NCBI GenBank assembly: GCA_008369845.1
Contig: MRSU01009471.1
Location: 1-47,891 of the forward strand
From: Trichomonas gallinae
Taxonomy: Eukaryota
Direction: 5' to 3'
DNA: 47,891 bases
Program-made: the position numbers and the translations under genes
Shown: one piece after another, positions 14,271 to 32,957 of the stretch
Layout: every line of letters begins with the position of its first letter
Position numbering within the stretch: position 1 is the stretch's first letter
Notes under the pieces: generated by a model
The model's database searches: none
What the model was told of the DNA's origin: nothing
What the model saw: the letters and a program-made list of their open reading frames with translations, nothing else

Positions 14271-17036
14271 ATGAAAGGAAAGGTCCCCATTTCATTTGAA
14301 ACTGAAGGTGGGGTCCTTGAAGAAGCCAAGGCAGCGTTCAACTCAATGTCCGAAGTTTTCACAAAAGATAAGCATTATCAAAAATATCAATACGGAATTC
14401 AAAAGATGTTTGAGTTTTTTAAGGATGAATACGACAAAAACATAAAATTGCTCACAATGGTACAAGAAATGAATGCGCAAATAGTTTTTAATGCTACGAA
14501 AATTAATTTAATCATGAAATCAACATATTCTGATAATGAATCATTGACAAAACTCAAGCAAGATTTCGATGAAGCTACATCCATGGTGCAATCAATCCAT
14601 AAATCCGAAATTCGATCAAAGCAAATATTGAAATCTTTACGAGAGCAGCTCGCACAGCTCACACAGCAAGTTCAGAGTGGCCAAGCATTCAATTTTGGCA
14701 CTCAAAACTCGATTTTTGAGATTTCTCAAGATGTTAAAAATCTAAGAAACGAAAAACAAAAAGATTTTGACGAACTAACTAAAATAAAGGAGTCAATAGA
14801 GACAGAAAACGTTGAAATGAAGAGTGTAACAGAAAGACAAGCAATTTTAACAAATGAATTAAATAAAGATACAAAAACTATTTCTTCTGTAGAAAAAAGA
14901 CTGACAACTTTAACAGCTGAAAATGAGGAGACAAGCAACGCAATTATTGAATTAAAGCCAATTGTTTCTGATATTTCAGGAAAAATTGAAAATGCAAAAA
15001 AATCTAAGAACGAATTAACAGAAAAGATCAATGTACTTAAGAACACGAAGGTGGACGTCACGAATTCATACAATACAGTGCGAAATGAGATGAAAGCGAG
15101 AAAAGATAGATTATCAAGGAGAAAAGAGCATTTAAGCGAGGTAATTCGCTTCCAATCACACAAAGAAGCGAGCATACAGTCAATAAAAGAGCAAATCCAA
15201 TCTATAGAAAAAGATATTTCAGATTCTCACGAATTGCTTAAAGAAGCGAATGCGAAGAATGGTGAACTCACAGTAGCATTAGAAGACGAAATAAAGAAAT
15301 CCGACATGATTTCAGAAGAAAAAGTCAAAGTTAGGAACCAAATCAAAGAACTTCGTCCACAAATCATCGAAGCATCAATAAAAGTATCATCAGAGCAGAA
15401 CGAAAAGGTTGTCATGAACAGACAACTCAGTGGAGCTCAAGCATCTCTAGCGGAAGTAGCACAATTACAATATGATGAAAAACACGCGATGCAAGAAATA
15501 AAAAACGCGAATTCGACACTGAAAAGCGAAACAGCGACTATGAAAGGCACCATGCAAGCGGACAAAGATAAAATTATCCAAATTTTTACCGAGATCGATA
15601 AAACGCGAACATCAATTTTTAAACTTCAAGCAGCAATAAACGCAATAGAAGACTCAAAGCTTGTCACAGAACAAGAGAACGAGCACCTAATGAAAGAGCA
15701 CGCGATACTGATGTCTAAGTCTAACAGACAAACAGATCTATCGGAACAGTTAAGAGAAGAAAGGAATAACTACGCTAGGCTTCTCAAAATAAAAGAAACA
15801 GAGAACCAGGAACTGATGCAATCAATTAACGAACTCGATCACCAAATACAGAAATACACAGCTGAAAATCAAAACTTGTTCGACGAAACTATAAACAGCC
15901 ACTTCAAAACAAGAGATTCAAATGATAAAATAGAAGACTTGAATTCAGAGATAAACCAATATAAGACCTCAATACAGAAAATCGAGAGAATCATTTCACA
16001 CCTTCAAGCGGAAAACACAACATTAAGCTACATCATTAACGAGTCGAACACTGACATGTTACTCGTGCAAAAAGAGACAACTGCACTAAACAAAACTGTC
16101 GCTGATTTAACTGAGCTCAACAAGTCAAGGATCCAACAAATTGAACAACTCAGGGCTGACATACAAACAAAAACGTCTTTCATACTTAAATCTGCCGCCC
16201 AATATAAAGAAAAACTCTCAGAATTAGAAAATCTCAACAGCCAACTTCAAAAATATAAGGATCTAACAGTAAATCTTGAAAATAAAGCAGAGAAACTGAA
16301 CCAATTGCAGTACACACACCAAAAAGTATCATCGCAGCTAGTTATTGAGAAAAGAAAATATATTACATTGATTCACGAGCTCGCAATTCCTCGAAATGTA
16401 CACCGCTGGCAGGTTATGGAGGCCGTCGACCCAGGATACGTTAAGAACATCAGGTATAGGATGATGCTGACAGACAAGCTTGACGACGCGCACAGAGAGC
16501 TCGAGCAATTGCAAAAAGAAAGAGATGAACTCAAAGAAAAATTGACAAAGAGTGAGGCAGAGTATGAAGCATCAATGACGAGAGAACAAGTCCGCACCTA
16601 CATTAACCGCTACAAAGAGGACGTGAAGCGGATGGACGACATGATAGCTGAGATGCAGATGCAGGTCAAAGGCCAGTTAAAGCCTTTGAAGGACTCTGAC
16701 AAAGAAGTTTTGGATCTTAGAGGAAGAGTCAATAAAAGAAGAGAAGCAGCGTCGTCCATCAAAAACGAGATCTACACAGAGACTCACAGCTTAGGAGAGC
16801 CAGAGGCATGGTTCATCACAGAAGGAGTTCCAGCGCCGGCAATAACTGGTGGTGGATTCTTGGCGTCATTGACTCCACCAACAGATACAAGAAAAGTTAC
16901 AAAGTCAAACGGTCTGATGGTTGGCGTTGCTCCAATATTGAGAAACTCGCGCTCAAACTCTATGTTCTCGACAGCAAGATCAACCGGAAGACCTTATAGA
17001 TCAAAAAGAACAATATTACCACCAATGCCAGAATAA
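14271..17036 (+). CDS. Long coiled-coil protein, CFAP58/CCDC147-like (flagellar)
   Basis: 921 aa of continuous heptads; PRNVHRWQVMEAVDP matches the recalled CFAP58 NVHRWxxLExxDP motif. Confidence 0.7.
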   Translation: MKGKVPISFETEGGVLEEAKAAFNSMSEVFTKDKHYQKYQYGIQKMFEFFKDEYDKNIKLLTMVQEMNAQIVFNATKINLIMKSTYSDNESLTKLKQDFDEATSMVQSIHKSEIRSKQILKSLREQLAQLTQQVQSGQAFNFGTQNSIFEISQDVKNLRNEKQKDFDELTKIKESIETENVEMKSVTERQAILTNELNKDTKTISSVEKRLTTLTAENEETSNAIIELKPIVSDISGKIENAKKSKNELTEKINVLKNTKVDVTNSYNTVRNEMKARKDRLSRRKEHLSEVIRFQSHKEASIQSIKEQIQSIEKDISDSHELLKEANAKNGELTVALEDEIKKSDMISEEKVKVRNQIKELRPQIIEASIKVSSEQNEKVVMNRQLSGAQASLAEVAQLQYDEKHAMQEIKNANSTLKSETATMKGTMQADKDKIIQIFTEIDKTRTSIFKLQAAINAIEDSKLVTEQENEHLMKEHAILMSKSNRQTDLSEQLREERNNYARLLKIKETENQELMQSINELDHQIQKYTAENQNLFDETINSHFKTRDSNDKIEDLNSEINQYKTSIQKIERIISHLQAENTTLSYIINESNTDMLLVQKETTALNKTVADLTELNKSRIQQIEQLRADIQTKTSFILKSAAQYKEKLSELENLNSQLQKYKDLTVNLENKAEKLNQLQYTHQKVSSQLVIEKRKYITLIHELAIPRNVHRWQVMEAVDPGYVKNIRYRMMLTDKLDDAHRELEQLQKERDELKEKLTKSEAEYEASMTREQVRTYINRYKEDVKRMDDMIAEMQMQVKGQLKPLKDSDKEVLDLRGRVNKRREAASSIKNEIYTETHSLGEPEAWFITEGVPAPAITGGGFLASLTPPTDTRKVTKSNGLMVGVAPILRNSRSNSMFSTARSTGRPYRSKRTILPPMPE

Positions 17037-17462
17037 TTCAATATGTTTTTAATAAAATGTTTGTATTTATTAACTTTTACATCAAAACAATTTAACTTAT
17101 TTTATATACTGAGATGTAGCATAGAATAATCTTTAGATGGCGATCATCCATTATACTGATATTGAAAATAAATGAATTAAAAATTTGACCAATATTCTTT
17201 CATTTTATCGATGATCTTTCTTATCTATTCAATATATCACTGAAATGGTATTAATTTATATTTTTGTCATGATAACTTTACATTTGACAATATTTGATTT
17301 ACAATATACGATTATTTTGTAAACATTTCAAAATTATATTTCATGTTCTAATGGCTGTTTATCATATATGAACCATAAATATCATAAAATTAAAAGGCCA
17401 CAAAAGTGCCCGAAAAAAGACGATAGAATTTGACAGCCATATATATTTATTGCATCGAAGCT

Positions 17463-17594
17463 GTATGTATTATTAAATTTTTGTTAAAGTTGTTAGCTTT
17501 GAAGAGCACAATCCAGCTCATCTGAATCATGATGAAGGAACGTCCGAGCTCAACACTTTAACAAAAAAAAAATTATTAAATTACTAACACACAG
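17463..17594 (+). other. Spliceosomal intron (132 nt) in an apparently non-coding transcript
   Basis: 5' GTATGT at 17463 and exact fused branch point/3' splice motif ACTAACACACAG at 17583-17594. Confidence 0.8.
17495..17550 (+). ncRNA. Intronic box C/D snoRNA candidate
   Basis: C-like TTGAAGA 17499-17505, D' CTGA 17522-17525, C' ATGATGA 17529-17535, D-like CCGA 17544-17547; closed by AGC/GCT and a long flanking stem TTTTTGTTAAAG/CTTTAACAAAAA. Confidence 0.75.
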
Positions 17595-17936
17595 AATTTA
17601 TAACTAACCAAGAGTCATATTGATTTATTTCTATTACTATTTGCCTATCTTTCTTAATTAATTAAGGTGCCACCTTAGCTGAAATATTTCTTCGAATAAA
17701 AATTTCAACTTTTTGTATTACTTCTTTATTCTATTTTCATTACTGCAATTGAGCATTAATATTTGATGTTTAAATATCAAATATTATGAATTTATATTTT
17801 CATTTTCTGAATATAACAGTTTTTCTCAATGTGAAATCTTACATCGTAATAAATATTTGGAAAGGATTCAAATTAGATAAATTTGAAAACATTTTTAATA
17901 AACATGAATAAAATATTAATTAAAAATAAACAAATG

Positions 17937-20552
17937 TTAGTTCTTTGCTCCGTTGTCTTTCAAAACTTCCTTGTATTTCTTCTTATCCCAAAAGCCAATA
18001 TACTTAGAGTCCTTGATGACGGCCATTGGTGTTTTTCCGTCGTGATTCTTCTCTTCTAGATTTATTCCATTAACTTTAACTAAATATTGAACAATCTCCA
18101 TGCGGCCGAGGTTACAAGCTGCATGCAAAACAGTGTCACCTGTGTTCGTCTTCAAGTTTATGTCGTATTTAGAGAGACCACATAAATATTTCATGATAGG
18201 CAGAGAATTGTTCATCACCGCCCAATAACCTGCCGACCATTTATTGTTGTTCGTCGCTAAAACGTTACAGCCGTTCTCAGCGAGCGCACGCATGAGTGGA
18301 AGATCTCCTTTATAAGCTGCGTTGAGGAATGATGTATTTCCGACATCATCTTTAGCTTCAGTTAATTTCTTTTCAACAGCAAACTTTATTGCATCATTGT
18401 CGTTTTCTTTTTGGCATTTCTTGAGGACGTGGTAGATCTGGTCGAAGTCATTCATTGTTGGGCGAAGCTTCTTCAACTTCTCTGTGTTCTCAGATGGTTT
18501 CTGTTGCTCTTGTGGTTGATTTTGTTGAGTTTGATTATTATTTGTAGGTTGTTGAGGTTTTTCTTCTTTAGGCGGTGATGGAGGTTTGAGGAAACTGATA
18601 TCGTAGCGAGGGGTACCGATAGCTTTGAGCTGACTCGTGAGACTATTTTCCTTTTTCGGAGCAAGTTTTGGAAGATTGGATAATGCTTGTGGTTTCTCTT
18701 GTACTTGTTTCTGCAAGCTTGAAGTGGATTGTTTGAGCTTTGGAAGTGAGTTTTGAGTGTTTAATTTTGATGGTTGAACTTCAACCTTCATTTCATTAGG
18801 ATTAATGAAATTCTTTGGATTTTGAGACTGTACAGCTGATGCATTGCCACTCAATGTCCACTGAACTGGTTTGTAGGCTTCATGCATTTCTTCGATCTCG
18901 AGTTCATCGATGATTTTGATTGGATTTGCTGGAACCGGAGGTGGAAGAAGTGGTTTATTCTTCTCAGGAAGCGGTGGAGGCATCAGCCACTGATTTTTTG
19001 ATGGATCTTCTCTGGGGTCAATGTGCTTGTTAGGGTCATAAGCTTGGGCTTCATACATGCGAGGTATATCGTTTTCAGATTGATCTATAAGCCTCTTATA
19101 TTCTGGATATTGATTTTCAGATTTTGGAGTTTTTTCGACTTCTCCGTTTGGATCTACTTGTTTGACTTTATCTTGTGTAATTTGAGCCTCTGGTTGTTGA
19201 TTTTCAGATTTTTGTAATTCGTTATTGATTTGTTGAGGGCTAATAAGCTTTTCATTAGATTGTGTATGTATTTCTGATTGGTTTTGATTAATATTTTCTG
19301 CTTGTTTCTGTTTAATATTATTTTTGTCCGATTTTTCTTCTGATTTTTGCATATTTTCGATTGCATTATCGTTCTTTTGTTCATCTTCTTCGACGATTTT
19401 TTCTGTTTTTGTTTGATTTTCTGATATTATTTTTTCAATTGCTTGTTTTTCAACTTTTTCGGCGGCAGGAGGCCAATCTTTTGCCATTTGTATGTGTGCA
19501 TTAAAATTTACTTTCTTAATGGTCTCCTCCTTCTTTTGCTCTGCATTTTCATTTGTATTGGCCGCCGAGAGAGCTGAATCGTTATTCTTCGGCGGCAATG
19601 AGGCTTTTTTTGGAGAGCTGTTGTTATTTTGCGTGTCTTCTTGCTGATTTTCGTCTTTCCGTCTGCTCGATAAAACAATCGGTTTTGTGTCTGTTTTCTT
19701 CGTGTTCTCTAGTTTAGGCATGTAACTTTCCTGGTTCCCTTGTTGCTGTGCATTCTCTTGTTGTTTCTGTTTGGCTGATGCTAGCTTCGTTTTTTTAGCT
19801 TTTAACGCTGCGATTTTCTTTTTCTTTTCTTCGTCGTCTTTATCTGTTTCTTTTTCTGCTGGTGGTTCTTCTTCAACAGGAAGGTCAAGCTTTACTCTAT
19901 ATTCGTTTAATTCTTCTTTTTGCTTTTTAATTGTTGCATCACGTTTTTTAAGCATGCTTTTGAGTGTTGCAATATCCTTTGTCTTCTTTTGTACTTGAGG
20001 AAATAGATCGTCAATTTTATCCCTGAGCTCGTCTGTTTCTTTTTCTTTTGCATTCAAAAGTTCTTTGAGTTGGTTGATTTCTTCATCTTTTTGATTCACA
20101 GCATTCATAATTCCAGAATGTTCACCCTGCTGCTGTGTTAATTCGCTTTTATTTTGAGAAATCGAAGTATGTAATATAGTAATTTGGTCTTTTAACCTCT
20201 GAATTTCTACGTCTTTCGCATGGTTTACTGATAATAATTCGTGATATGATTGATAAACTGATTTAAGTACGGGAGATTTTAAAGATTTGAAAATTATTGA
20301 TAAAAGTTCTGCCACTTTTGTGAAATCATTACTTGTGACTACTTTGAGGTGCTGAATTATTTTGAAAATTTCGACTGATTTGAATTTTGCTTTGCATTCT
20401 GTCAAAAATCCAATTGCTTGATTGATTTGTAGATCAGTTAGATCCAAAATTTTGCAGACATCAGGTAGCGAGAAAACATCTATGAACGTGTGATTCTGCA
20501 GATACACGCTGATGTTCTCGGCGACCGATTTATGATCGACCGATGTCTGCAT
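17937..20552 (-). CDS. Coiled-coil/low-complexity protein with C-terminal ankyrin repeats
   Basis: GNTSFLNAAYKG, KWSAGYWAVMNN, GDTVLHAACNLG, GKTPM repeats; Q/E/K/P-rich middle; first ATG (MQTS) at 20552. Confidence 0.85.
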   Translation of the reverse strand: MQTSVDHKSVAENISVYLQNHTFIDVFSLPDVCKILDLTDLQINQAIGFLTECKAKFKSVEIFKIIQHLKVVTSNDFTKVAELLSIIFKSLKSPVLKSVYQSYHELLSVNHAKDVEIQRLKDQITILHTSISQNKSELTQQQGEHSGIMNAVNQKDEEINQLKELLNAKEKETDELRDKIDDLFPQVQKKTKDIATLKSMLKKRDATIKKQKEELNEYRVKLDLPVEEEPPAEKETDKDDEEKKKKIAALKAKKTKLASAKQKQQENAQQQGNQESYMPKLENTKKTDTKPIVLSSRRKDENQQEDTQNNNSSPKKASLPPKNNDSALSAANTNENAEQKKEETIKKVNFNAHIQMAKDWPPAAEKVEKQAIEKIISENQTKTEKIVEEDEQKNDNAIENMQKSEEKSDKNNIKQKQAENINQNQSEIHTQSNEKLISPQQINNELQKSENQQPEAQITQDKVKQVDPNGEVEKTPKSENQYPEYKRLIDQSENDIPRMYEAQAYDPNKHIDPREDPSKNQWLMPPPLPEKNKPLLPPPVPANPIKIIDELEIEEMHEAYKPVQWTLSGNASAVQSQNPKNFINPNEMKVEVQPSKLNTQNSLPKLKQSTSSLQKQVQEKPQALSNLPKLAPKKENSLTSQLKAIGTPRYDISFLKPPSPPKEEKPQQPTNNNQTQQNQPQEQQKPSENTEKLKKLRPTMNDFDQIYHVLKKCQKENDNDAIKFAVEKKLTEAKDDVGNTSFLNAAYKGDLPLMRALAENGCNVLATNNNKWSAGYWAVMNNSLPIMKYLCGLSKYDINLKTNTGDTVLHAACNLGRMEIVQYLVKVNGINLEEKNHDGKTPMAVIKDSKYIGFWDKKKYKEVLKDNGAKN

Positions 20553-32477: not shown

Positions 32478-32957
32478 TTGTTTTTTTGAAAAGTGACTAA
32501 GATTTCACTTTTTTGTTTTCTTACACTAATATAGTCATTTCATATCAAATGGTTTTATATATTTCAACTTTTAAATGCCAAAAATATATAAATTCACTAA
32601 CATTATAGTTAAATTTCTATTATTTTAGTTAAATTCGAAATTGATTTTGCTTTTATTGTTATTTCTAAACTATCTATTTGATTATATTTTAGATTATTTT
32701 TAAATATATTAATTAGTTGTTTACATCTCATATTACACAGTGTTTTATTATAAATCAATATTGTTTCGATTTTACTTCTAATTATTTTTTATTATTTCAT
32801 TTTATACATGTAAATATCTATTGTCAAGTACTTAATGTTATATAGTTATAACATTCAAATTAAAATTTTCAAAAATATGAAATATTTTTTTTTGTTAAAA
32901 ATACGTTTTTATGTATGTTGTTCATTGTATTTCACAGTATTCATATGTATTTATTAT

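Follow-up and report, generated by a model that had tools for sequence, protein, structure and literature searches.

A conserved compact C/D snoRNA in an orphan Trichomonas intron, likely spliced from a non-coding host and predicted to guide LSU rRNA methylation

A non-coding gap in a contig of Trichomonas gallinae (MRSU01009471.1) holds what we read as a conserved compact box C/D snoRNA in an orphan intron, likely spliced from a non-coding host and predicted to guide 2'-O-methylation of a G in the large subunit (LSU) rRNA. By the window we mean the whole stretch of 47,891 nt that was analysed. We put the probability of the complete reading at about 0.55, and its parts are not equally secure: judged from sequence, the RNA is very probably a real snoRNA, its release by splicing is probable, and the G is a moderately favoured candidate for the methylated position.

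The intron and the RNA within it

The element lies in a 900-nt non-coding gap with convergent genes on both sides. Upstream, a 921-aa ORF for which no Pfam family was matched (14271..17036, + strand) ends 426 nt 5' of the intron; on the other side is an 871-aa ORF with ankyrin repeats according to Pfam (17937..20552, - strand). Both are separate from the element. Of six window proteins looked up, two fall in 90%-identity clusters with proteins of T. vaginalis G3, with which they share 196/206 and 201/228 residues, and the other four had no entry in the collection; the window thus belongs near T. vaginalis.

The initial annotation had nested the RNA in an intron, and a type A spliceosomal signature of 132 nt is indeed present around it (17463..17594, + strand), running from GTATGTA at 17463 to ACTAACACACAG; the introns of its two Trichomonas orthologs measure 130 and 128 nt. 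Type A introns of Trichomonas are defined, in the part of PMC12316389 devoted to them, by a GTATGT 5' motif, a fused ACTAACACACAG 3' motif and a length of 50-196 nt, and positions 17463-17594 have all three. The 3' 12-mer (17583..17594, + strand) occurs as a single exact copy in the 47,891 bases, with GTATGT 132 nt away, and by the same published consensus it would fuse branch point and 3' splice site, with A17587 as the predicted branch nucleotide. A second ACTAAC (17603-17614, + strand) begins 9 nt past the 3' splice site and matches the 12-mer at 9 of 12 positions; among the three metagenome introns described below (L001, L002 and L003), ACTAAC also stands 8 nt past the 3' splice site in L003 and is absent from L001 and L002. 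A looser branch-like word followed by AG is found in intergenic sequence at 32596-32608 (+ strand).

Once folded, the intron leaves 42 single-stranded nt between its splice sites, inside the effective distance of 25-44 nt given for long T. vaginalis introns, which fold into stems, in the relevant passages of PMC6679479. In the four introns that we measured, effective lengths were 42, 39, 22 and 27 nt, within or near that range, and 18-39 nt separated the branch A from box D.

No coding host could be found for the intron, and this option was ruled out: the longest ATG frame within the gap is 41 aa, the 60 nt 5' of the intron contain no ATG, and 3' of the intron TAAA first occurs at +103 and ATG at +172. 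With no AUG up to +172 in the joined exons, the host transcript would code for nothing. A possible start is offered by the Inr-like element CCATA (17437..17441, + strand), which fits the HCAHW motif as defined in the promoter section of PMC7370421 and would place the start at A17439. HCAHW stands at -26 relative to the 5' splice site in the window, at -25 in L001 and L002 and at -30 in L003; with a background of 0.036 per nt and an inferred start site, the element is suggestive only. Exon 1 would then be a non-coding stretch of 24 nt (17439..17462, + strand). Exon 2, also predicted to be non-coding, would span 17595..17730 (+ strand), its end placed from the first UAAA (17697-17700) by the 10-30 nt rule in the text of PMC13548475, for a putative host of ~150 nt of joined exons.

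Within the intron, the sequence statements of the initial annotation all hold. Two arms on the + strand, 17478..17497 (whose last three nucleotides are the AGC of K-turn stem I) and 17548..17567, fold into an outer stem enclosing 50 nt, and the C–D'–C'–D core occupies 49 nt of these. Box C (17499..17505) is a degenerate TTGAAGA, the same in both Trichomonas orthologs and CTGATGA in L002; box D (17544..17547) is a degenerate CCGA, shared with the Trichomonas orthologs and several sister introns and CTGA in L002. With one deviation in each of these boxes, tandem G-A pairs and a 3-bp stem, the terminal K-turn can form, and in L002 the two boxes are canonical. The D' guide (17506..17521) pairs with LSU rRNA through 17510-17521, placing C17517 at D+5. 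It runs into a K-loop-like motif (17522..17535) that consists of D' CTGA (17522-17525), a 3-nt loop and C' ATGATGA (17529-17535); the L002 copies of these internal boxes are more degenerate. Between C' and D lies an 8-nt D spacer (17536..17543) that varies among orthologs and is probably no guide. U17521, directly 5' of D', could pair with A17535, the last A of C', and a U before D' is present in most sister RNAs irrespective of target pairing.

The 90-nt hairpin has a folding energy of -25.8 kcal/mol (z -3.95), and none of 200 shuffles was as stable. The stem does not fix the strand, because the reverse complement is about as stable (z -3.91), and the 59-nt core, folded on its own, does not stand out (z -0.43). 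A four-box pattern designed after the RNA, and hence post hoc, occurs once in the window against 0.005 times per shuffled window (200 shuffles). Rfam gave no match in the window at gathering threshold. With E-values up to 10, the gap gave eight matches, of which the three with the lowest E-values and one more are C/D families on 17494-17552, and a search with a 71-nt stretch gave 12 matches, all of them C/D families; the sub-threshold matches include sR14 (E 0.0023) and SNORD29 (E 0.078).

Orthologs and the predicted rRNA target

Orthologs of the intron stand in S3 Table of PMC12316389, which collects intron-like sequences without RNA-seq validation: a T. vaginalis intron of 130 nt (row 18, chr_IV 5931296-5931425 in strain G3, listed as 'inactive' and 'Not assembled, Low coverage') and a T. 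stableri intron of 128 nt (row 16, 'inactive', 'No SJ reads'). The window intron differs in sequence from both copies. Sequences from this table were compared by eye, and the counts that we take from them come without a computed control. By this comparison 46 of the 49 core nucleotides are identical between the window and T. vaginalis; the boxes and 15 guide nucleotides are invariant, none of the three changes touches a box or the pairing guide, and the intron flanks have diverged, so that boxes and guide are better kept than flanks. Also by eye, both Trichomonas orthologs show a compensatory change in the outer stem, with G-C in place of A17487-U17558. S3 Table describes the T. stableri ortholog as overlapping an annotated gene, which we count against our main reading.

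A scan of metagenomes for a 5' splice site, a D box and the 3' 12-mer in combination gave three loci (L001, L002 and L003), and the same pattern gave none in viral contigs. Box C, D' and C' were no part of the pattern, yet all three loci have them too. In L002, an intron of 93 nt keeps the guide and its register, together with canonical boxes C and D and both splice signals; the long stem is absent. L001 corresponds by eye to row 16 of the T. vaginalis list. L003, from the same assembly as L002, contains a SNORD31-like RNA (E 6e-5, below gathering threshold) whose D+5 falls on the G of what we take, from its sequence context, to be the U31/snR67 site, and which serves as a register control. 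The locus adjoins a gene for CK2-beta, and since the only named relative among the seven matches of this protein is Histomonas (40%), L002 and L003 probably come from a distant parabasalid. The window has no neighbours in common with any of the three loci, and each of their introns could sit in the UTR of a neighbouring gene, which likewise counts against the main reading. The same 12-nt guide occurs in T. vaginalis, T. stableri and L002, and its register is identical in the four organisms. Conservation in three other organisms supports the C/D snoRNA identity originally proposed.

For reference rRNAs we used a search of bacterial assemblies with an SSU motif, which gave four matches; three of these are eukaryotic rDNA contigs (L010, L011 and L012), and L009 is without rRNA. 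The LSU genes of L011 and L012 are ~2,750-2,810 nt long and 86% identical to each other, and from their short size and sequence features we take both to be trichomonad rDNA, distinct from the host's own. The presence of rDNA that is probably trichomonad inside bacterial assemblies (L010, L011 and L012) likely reflects binning contamination, and the three contigs are handy as full rDNA units. In viral contigs the SSU motif found two loci (L004 and L005), neither with rRNA, and an LSU motif found three (L006, L007 and L008). On two contigs from giant-virus bins the exact 23-nt LSU motif (L006 3722-3744, L008 7001-7023) lies in flanks unlike those of a normal LSU; L006 had no Rfam rRNA match, and L006 and L008 were scanned yet left out as rRNA references.

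In both L011 and L012 the best site for the guide is the LSU sequence GUGAGCUGGGUU, with D+5 on its second G (L012 G5169). The duplex comprises 12 bp, two of them G-U, with eight consecutive Watson-Crick pairs around the target and an energy of -17.6 kcal/mol; the best duplex outside the target region reaches -9.4 kcal/mol in these two references. On these rRNAs of related organisms the guide has the form of a C/D antisense element, that is, 10-21 nt directly 5' of D or D' with a Watson-Crick pair at +5. Both the 12-bp duplex with two G-U pairs and the placing of an LSU G opposite C17517 by the D+5 rule, which had been proposed on an assumed host sequence, were thus reproduced on two trichomonad-type LSU rRNAs other than the host's own, methylation itself being a prediction. 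Taken by itself, a match of 12 bp is no rarity: the duplex score is attained by 5 shuffled guides in 1000 and by 10 of 350 other CTGA-preceding 16-mers in the window (~3% of CTGA sites), and by energy the guide duplex ranks fourth of 351 such 16-mers. It is therefore conservation that carries the case for a snoRNA.

The predicted G is flanked by an A and a C, and a further C lies 13 nt past that A, a spacing that fits yeast Am2946, Cm2948 and Cm2959 as tabulated in PMC8817022 and given in PMC11542601. The yeast neighbours named in the initial annotation, Am2946 with snR71 and Cm2948 with snR69, were correct. The tables of these two papers give no methylated G between the equivalents of Am2946 and Cm2948, and none is listed at the site for yeast, human, plants or Dictyostelium, which we count against the G; the available portions of PMC13542104 and PMC8860606 contain nothing on this methylation site. 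The 8-nt D spacer had no convincing sense-strand rRNA match in the reference rDNAs, and a D-box guide function for the window RNA was dropped on this ground. In L002 the D spacer (1550-1563) could pair over 9-11 nt with LSU rRNA, which would put an A (L012 A3346) at D+5; the L002 RNA may be a dual guide and the Trichomonas RNA a single guide.

We propose the following course of events. Pol II would start ~24 nt 5' of the 5' splice site, at the Inr-like element, and the outer stem would bring the splice sites to their 42-nt effective distance and preform the terminal K-turn. The major spliceosome would excise the intron, the lariat being debranched and trimmed to about 56-59 nt, and the joined exons (~150 nt, no AUG) would be discarded. 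Snu13, Nop56, Nop58 and fibrillarin would assemble on the RNA, and the D' guide would set the G opposite C17517 for methylation. The most economical history would be a one-nucleotide shift of a guide of the snR69/snoR69Y type.

Sister introns and competing readings

The type A part of the T. vaginalis list in S3 Table has 20 rows, of which rows 27 and 31 were set aside (no consensus ends, overlap with genes). By eye, every one of the 18 remaining rows has a box resembling C and a terminal box resembling D, 16 of them combine C/D-like boxes with at least 10 nt complementary to L012 rRNA, and this complementarity nearly always lies directly 5' of a D'-like box. The exceptions are row 7, without a clear D', row 16, with a mismatch at D+3, row 3, with 9 nt, and row 14, with none; rows 6 and 16 are circular evidence, because the search motif was derived from them. 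The 18 rows group by eye into about 14 families, and the equivalent count for T. stableri is 14 of 17. Plain D+5 in sister RNAs leads to positions that we recognise, from their sequence contexts, as presumably those of yeast Cm1639, Gm1428, Gm1450 and Cm2337, numbered as in the table of PMC8817022. In T. stableri, rows 11 and 13 place D+5 by eye on the A adjacent to the predicted G, and row 4 places it on the C that follows 13 nt later, positions that fit the Am2946/Cm2959 spacing. Row 3 of T. vaginalis and rows 19-20 of T. stableri contain a longer C/D RNA whose complementarity to the 5' part of the SSU (L012 828-836) spans 9 nt and presumably resembles domain A of U14. Rows 7 and 17 of T. 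vaginalis have 10 nt complementary to L012 5245-5254, which we take to be the sarcin-ricin loop; in row 17, with a degenerate D', D+5 would land on a tetraloop G (all by eye). In S3 Table of PMC12316389, 14 of the 18 T. vaginalis sister introns are listed with 'No RNAseq evidence'. The consensus-ended 'inactive' type A introns look like an unrecognised class of snoRNA hosts, and most of them likely share the same snoRNA-intron design in T. vaginalis and T. stableri.

What else could account for these observations? The same intronic snoRNA might methylate the next C, the equivalent of Cm2948, through a +6 register or a bulged U17521, as the parabasalid counterpart of snR69/snoR69Y, its target unaltered. 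This C is methylated in yeast, plants and Dictyostelium according to the tables of PMC8817022 and PMC11542601, and use of +6 is on record for Dictyostelium in the first of these; moreover, the 20 T. stableri rows, inspected by eye, include guides directed at the A and at the equivalent of Cm2959, and none in strict register for this C. We nevertheless consider methylation of the C unlikely, given that sister RNAs, which mostly share the U 5' of D', arrive at known sites by plain D+5 and that the register of the window guide does not vary among the four organisms. A guide with two sites is quite improbable. Its second site, 32 nt upstream in the LSU on the 5' side of the A-loop helix, gives a 12-bp duplex of -16.2 kcal/mol on L011 and L012 alike, and either a second G would be methylated or folding of the peptidyl-transferase centre would be chaperoned. 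Only 1 of 300 shuffled guides gives two sites as good, and a conserved U, held in a wobble pair at the main site, has a Watson-Crick partner upstream. Against this, a D+2 mismatch and G-U pairs on either side of D+5 make the upstream site a poor methylation substrate, the L002 guide is better at the main G (13 bp) and weaker upstream (-11.9 kcal/mol), and likeness between the two rRNA sites could alone yield the second match.

The remaining readings question the intron rather than the target. A real snoRNA might arise by trimming of a capped precursor that is not spliced, or the splice signals might serve only first-step cleavage or recruitment. Box D lies just 18-39 nt from the branch A in four introns, and the vertebrate optimum for this distance is longer. 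Junctions of the orthologs and sisters were also not validated by the published RNA-seq, as S3 Table of PMC12316389 records, which we count against splicing. A first exon of ~24 nt and a short, unstable non-coding product would, however, evade split-read mapping and so would explain the missing junction reads, and the 5' heptamer and fused 12-mer, including the final AG, are near-perfect in orthologs and sisters, which were chosen by these motifs; incomplete splicing thus seems to us rather improbable. That there is no snoRNA at all, and that an ordinary or dead intron has a stem merely to shorten its splice-site distance and box-like words by chance, we regard as very improbable. Stem formation is known for long T. 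vaginalis introns (PMC6679479, in its treatment of such introns), Rfam gave no gathering-level match and the duplex alone is not rare, but the conserved part is the loop and not the stem, L002 retains guide and boxes without a long stem, and there is no coding host to interrupt.

Returning to the main reading, an snoRNA released by splicing that guides methylation of the G, the window RNA appears to be one of many snoRNA introns, which likely exist to release guides. A broader joint reading, to which we give somewhat less than even odds, is that parabasalid C/D snoRNAs come largely from mini-genes (a ~25-nt exon, one snoRNA-filled intron and a throw-away exon 2), that about a third of T. vaginalis long introns serve ribosome biogenesis rather than mRNA (18 of 57, from 39 validated and 18 'inactive' introns), and that the window RNA adds a lineage-specific methyl group on a G of the peptidyl-transferase centre through a one-nucleotide shift of an ancient guide. 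If true, introns serving ribosome biogenesis would give an intron-poor lineage a strong reason to retain its spliceosome, and the methylated G would be one not listed in other eukaryotes. The idea that snoRNA release helps to keep splicing alive in intron-poor genomes becomes directly testable outside fungi and animals, and a possibly lineage-specific modification is predicted beside the catalytic centre of the ribosome.

Relation to known systems

As we read the sequences, this would be a familiar type of system in a lineage where it was not expected, one that reinterprets published 'inactive' introns and offers a new candidate methyl site. Intronic snoRNAs in Trichomonas had previously been called 'highly unlikely'. 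A 2012 study of T. vaginalis snoRNA caps could include some of these RNAs. Eight C/D snoRNAs from T. vaginalis, those of Chen et al. 2009 (PMC2817412), are of the same RNA class and from the same genus. The open literature, to which our search was confined, held no report of trichomonad intronic snoRNAs or of a methylated G at the site, and the guide motif was absent from five supplements of PMC13548475 and from two of the six supplementary files of PMC6260720. The 'inactive' type A introns of PMC12316389 include the orthologs, listed there merely as unvalidated introns; the main text of that paper uses the word 'snoRNA' zero times and, in its passages on 5' UTR introns, mentions small nucleolar RNAs only as a general possibility. 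The available part of PMC13548475 repeats the 'inactive' label and makes no mention of snoRNAs.

SNORD29/U29 is the best-scoring Rfam match, with 22.8 bits for the window and 25.2 bits for L002 against a gathering threshold of 48 that neither reaches. Like SNORD29/U29, snR71 (Am2946) and snR69/snoR69Y (Cm2948), the window RNA directs a D' guide to the same LSU stretch, and these families are grouped in Rfam clan CL00051 (PMC3511168, in its clan data). The window guide is one nucleotide shorter before D' than the SNORD29 consensus and hence sets D+5 on the G between the two known sites. It differs from SNORD29/U29/snR71, whose D+5 falls on the A (Am2946/Am4493), by pointing to the next G, and from snR69/snoR69Y, whose D+5 falls on the C (Cm2948), by having that C at +6; T. 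stableri has a separate guide in the U29 register besides the ortholog of the window RNA. The archaeal box C/D sRNAs sR14, sR1 and sR44 give the lowest Rfam E-values and share a size of ~55 nt, strong D'/C' boxes and a 3-nt loop. The likeness is in boxes and size and not in the guide, and unlike them the window RNA is eukaryotic, intronic and probably single-guide.

UHG and GAS5 are vertebrate non-coding snoRNA host genes. Yeast has intronic snoRNAs in hosts with degenerate or non-coding exons (Mitrovich et al. 2010, as cited in the passage of PMC4202332 on such hosts). The window resembles the yeast and vertebrate hosts in that an intron appears to be kept for its snoRNA between exons that are non-coding. 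It departs from them in that each tiny host would hold a single snoRNA, in that the genome has no more than 63 validated introns, in belonging to another eukaryotic supergroup, and in the 18-39 nt that separate box D from the branch A in the four introns measured.
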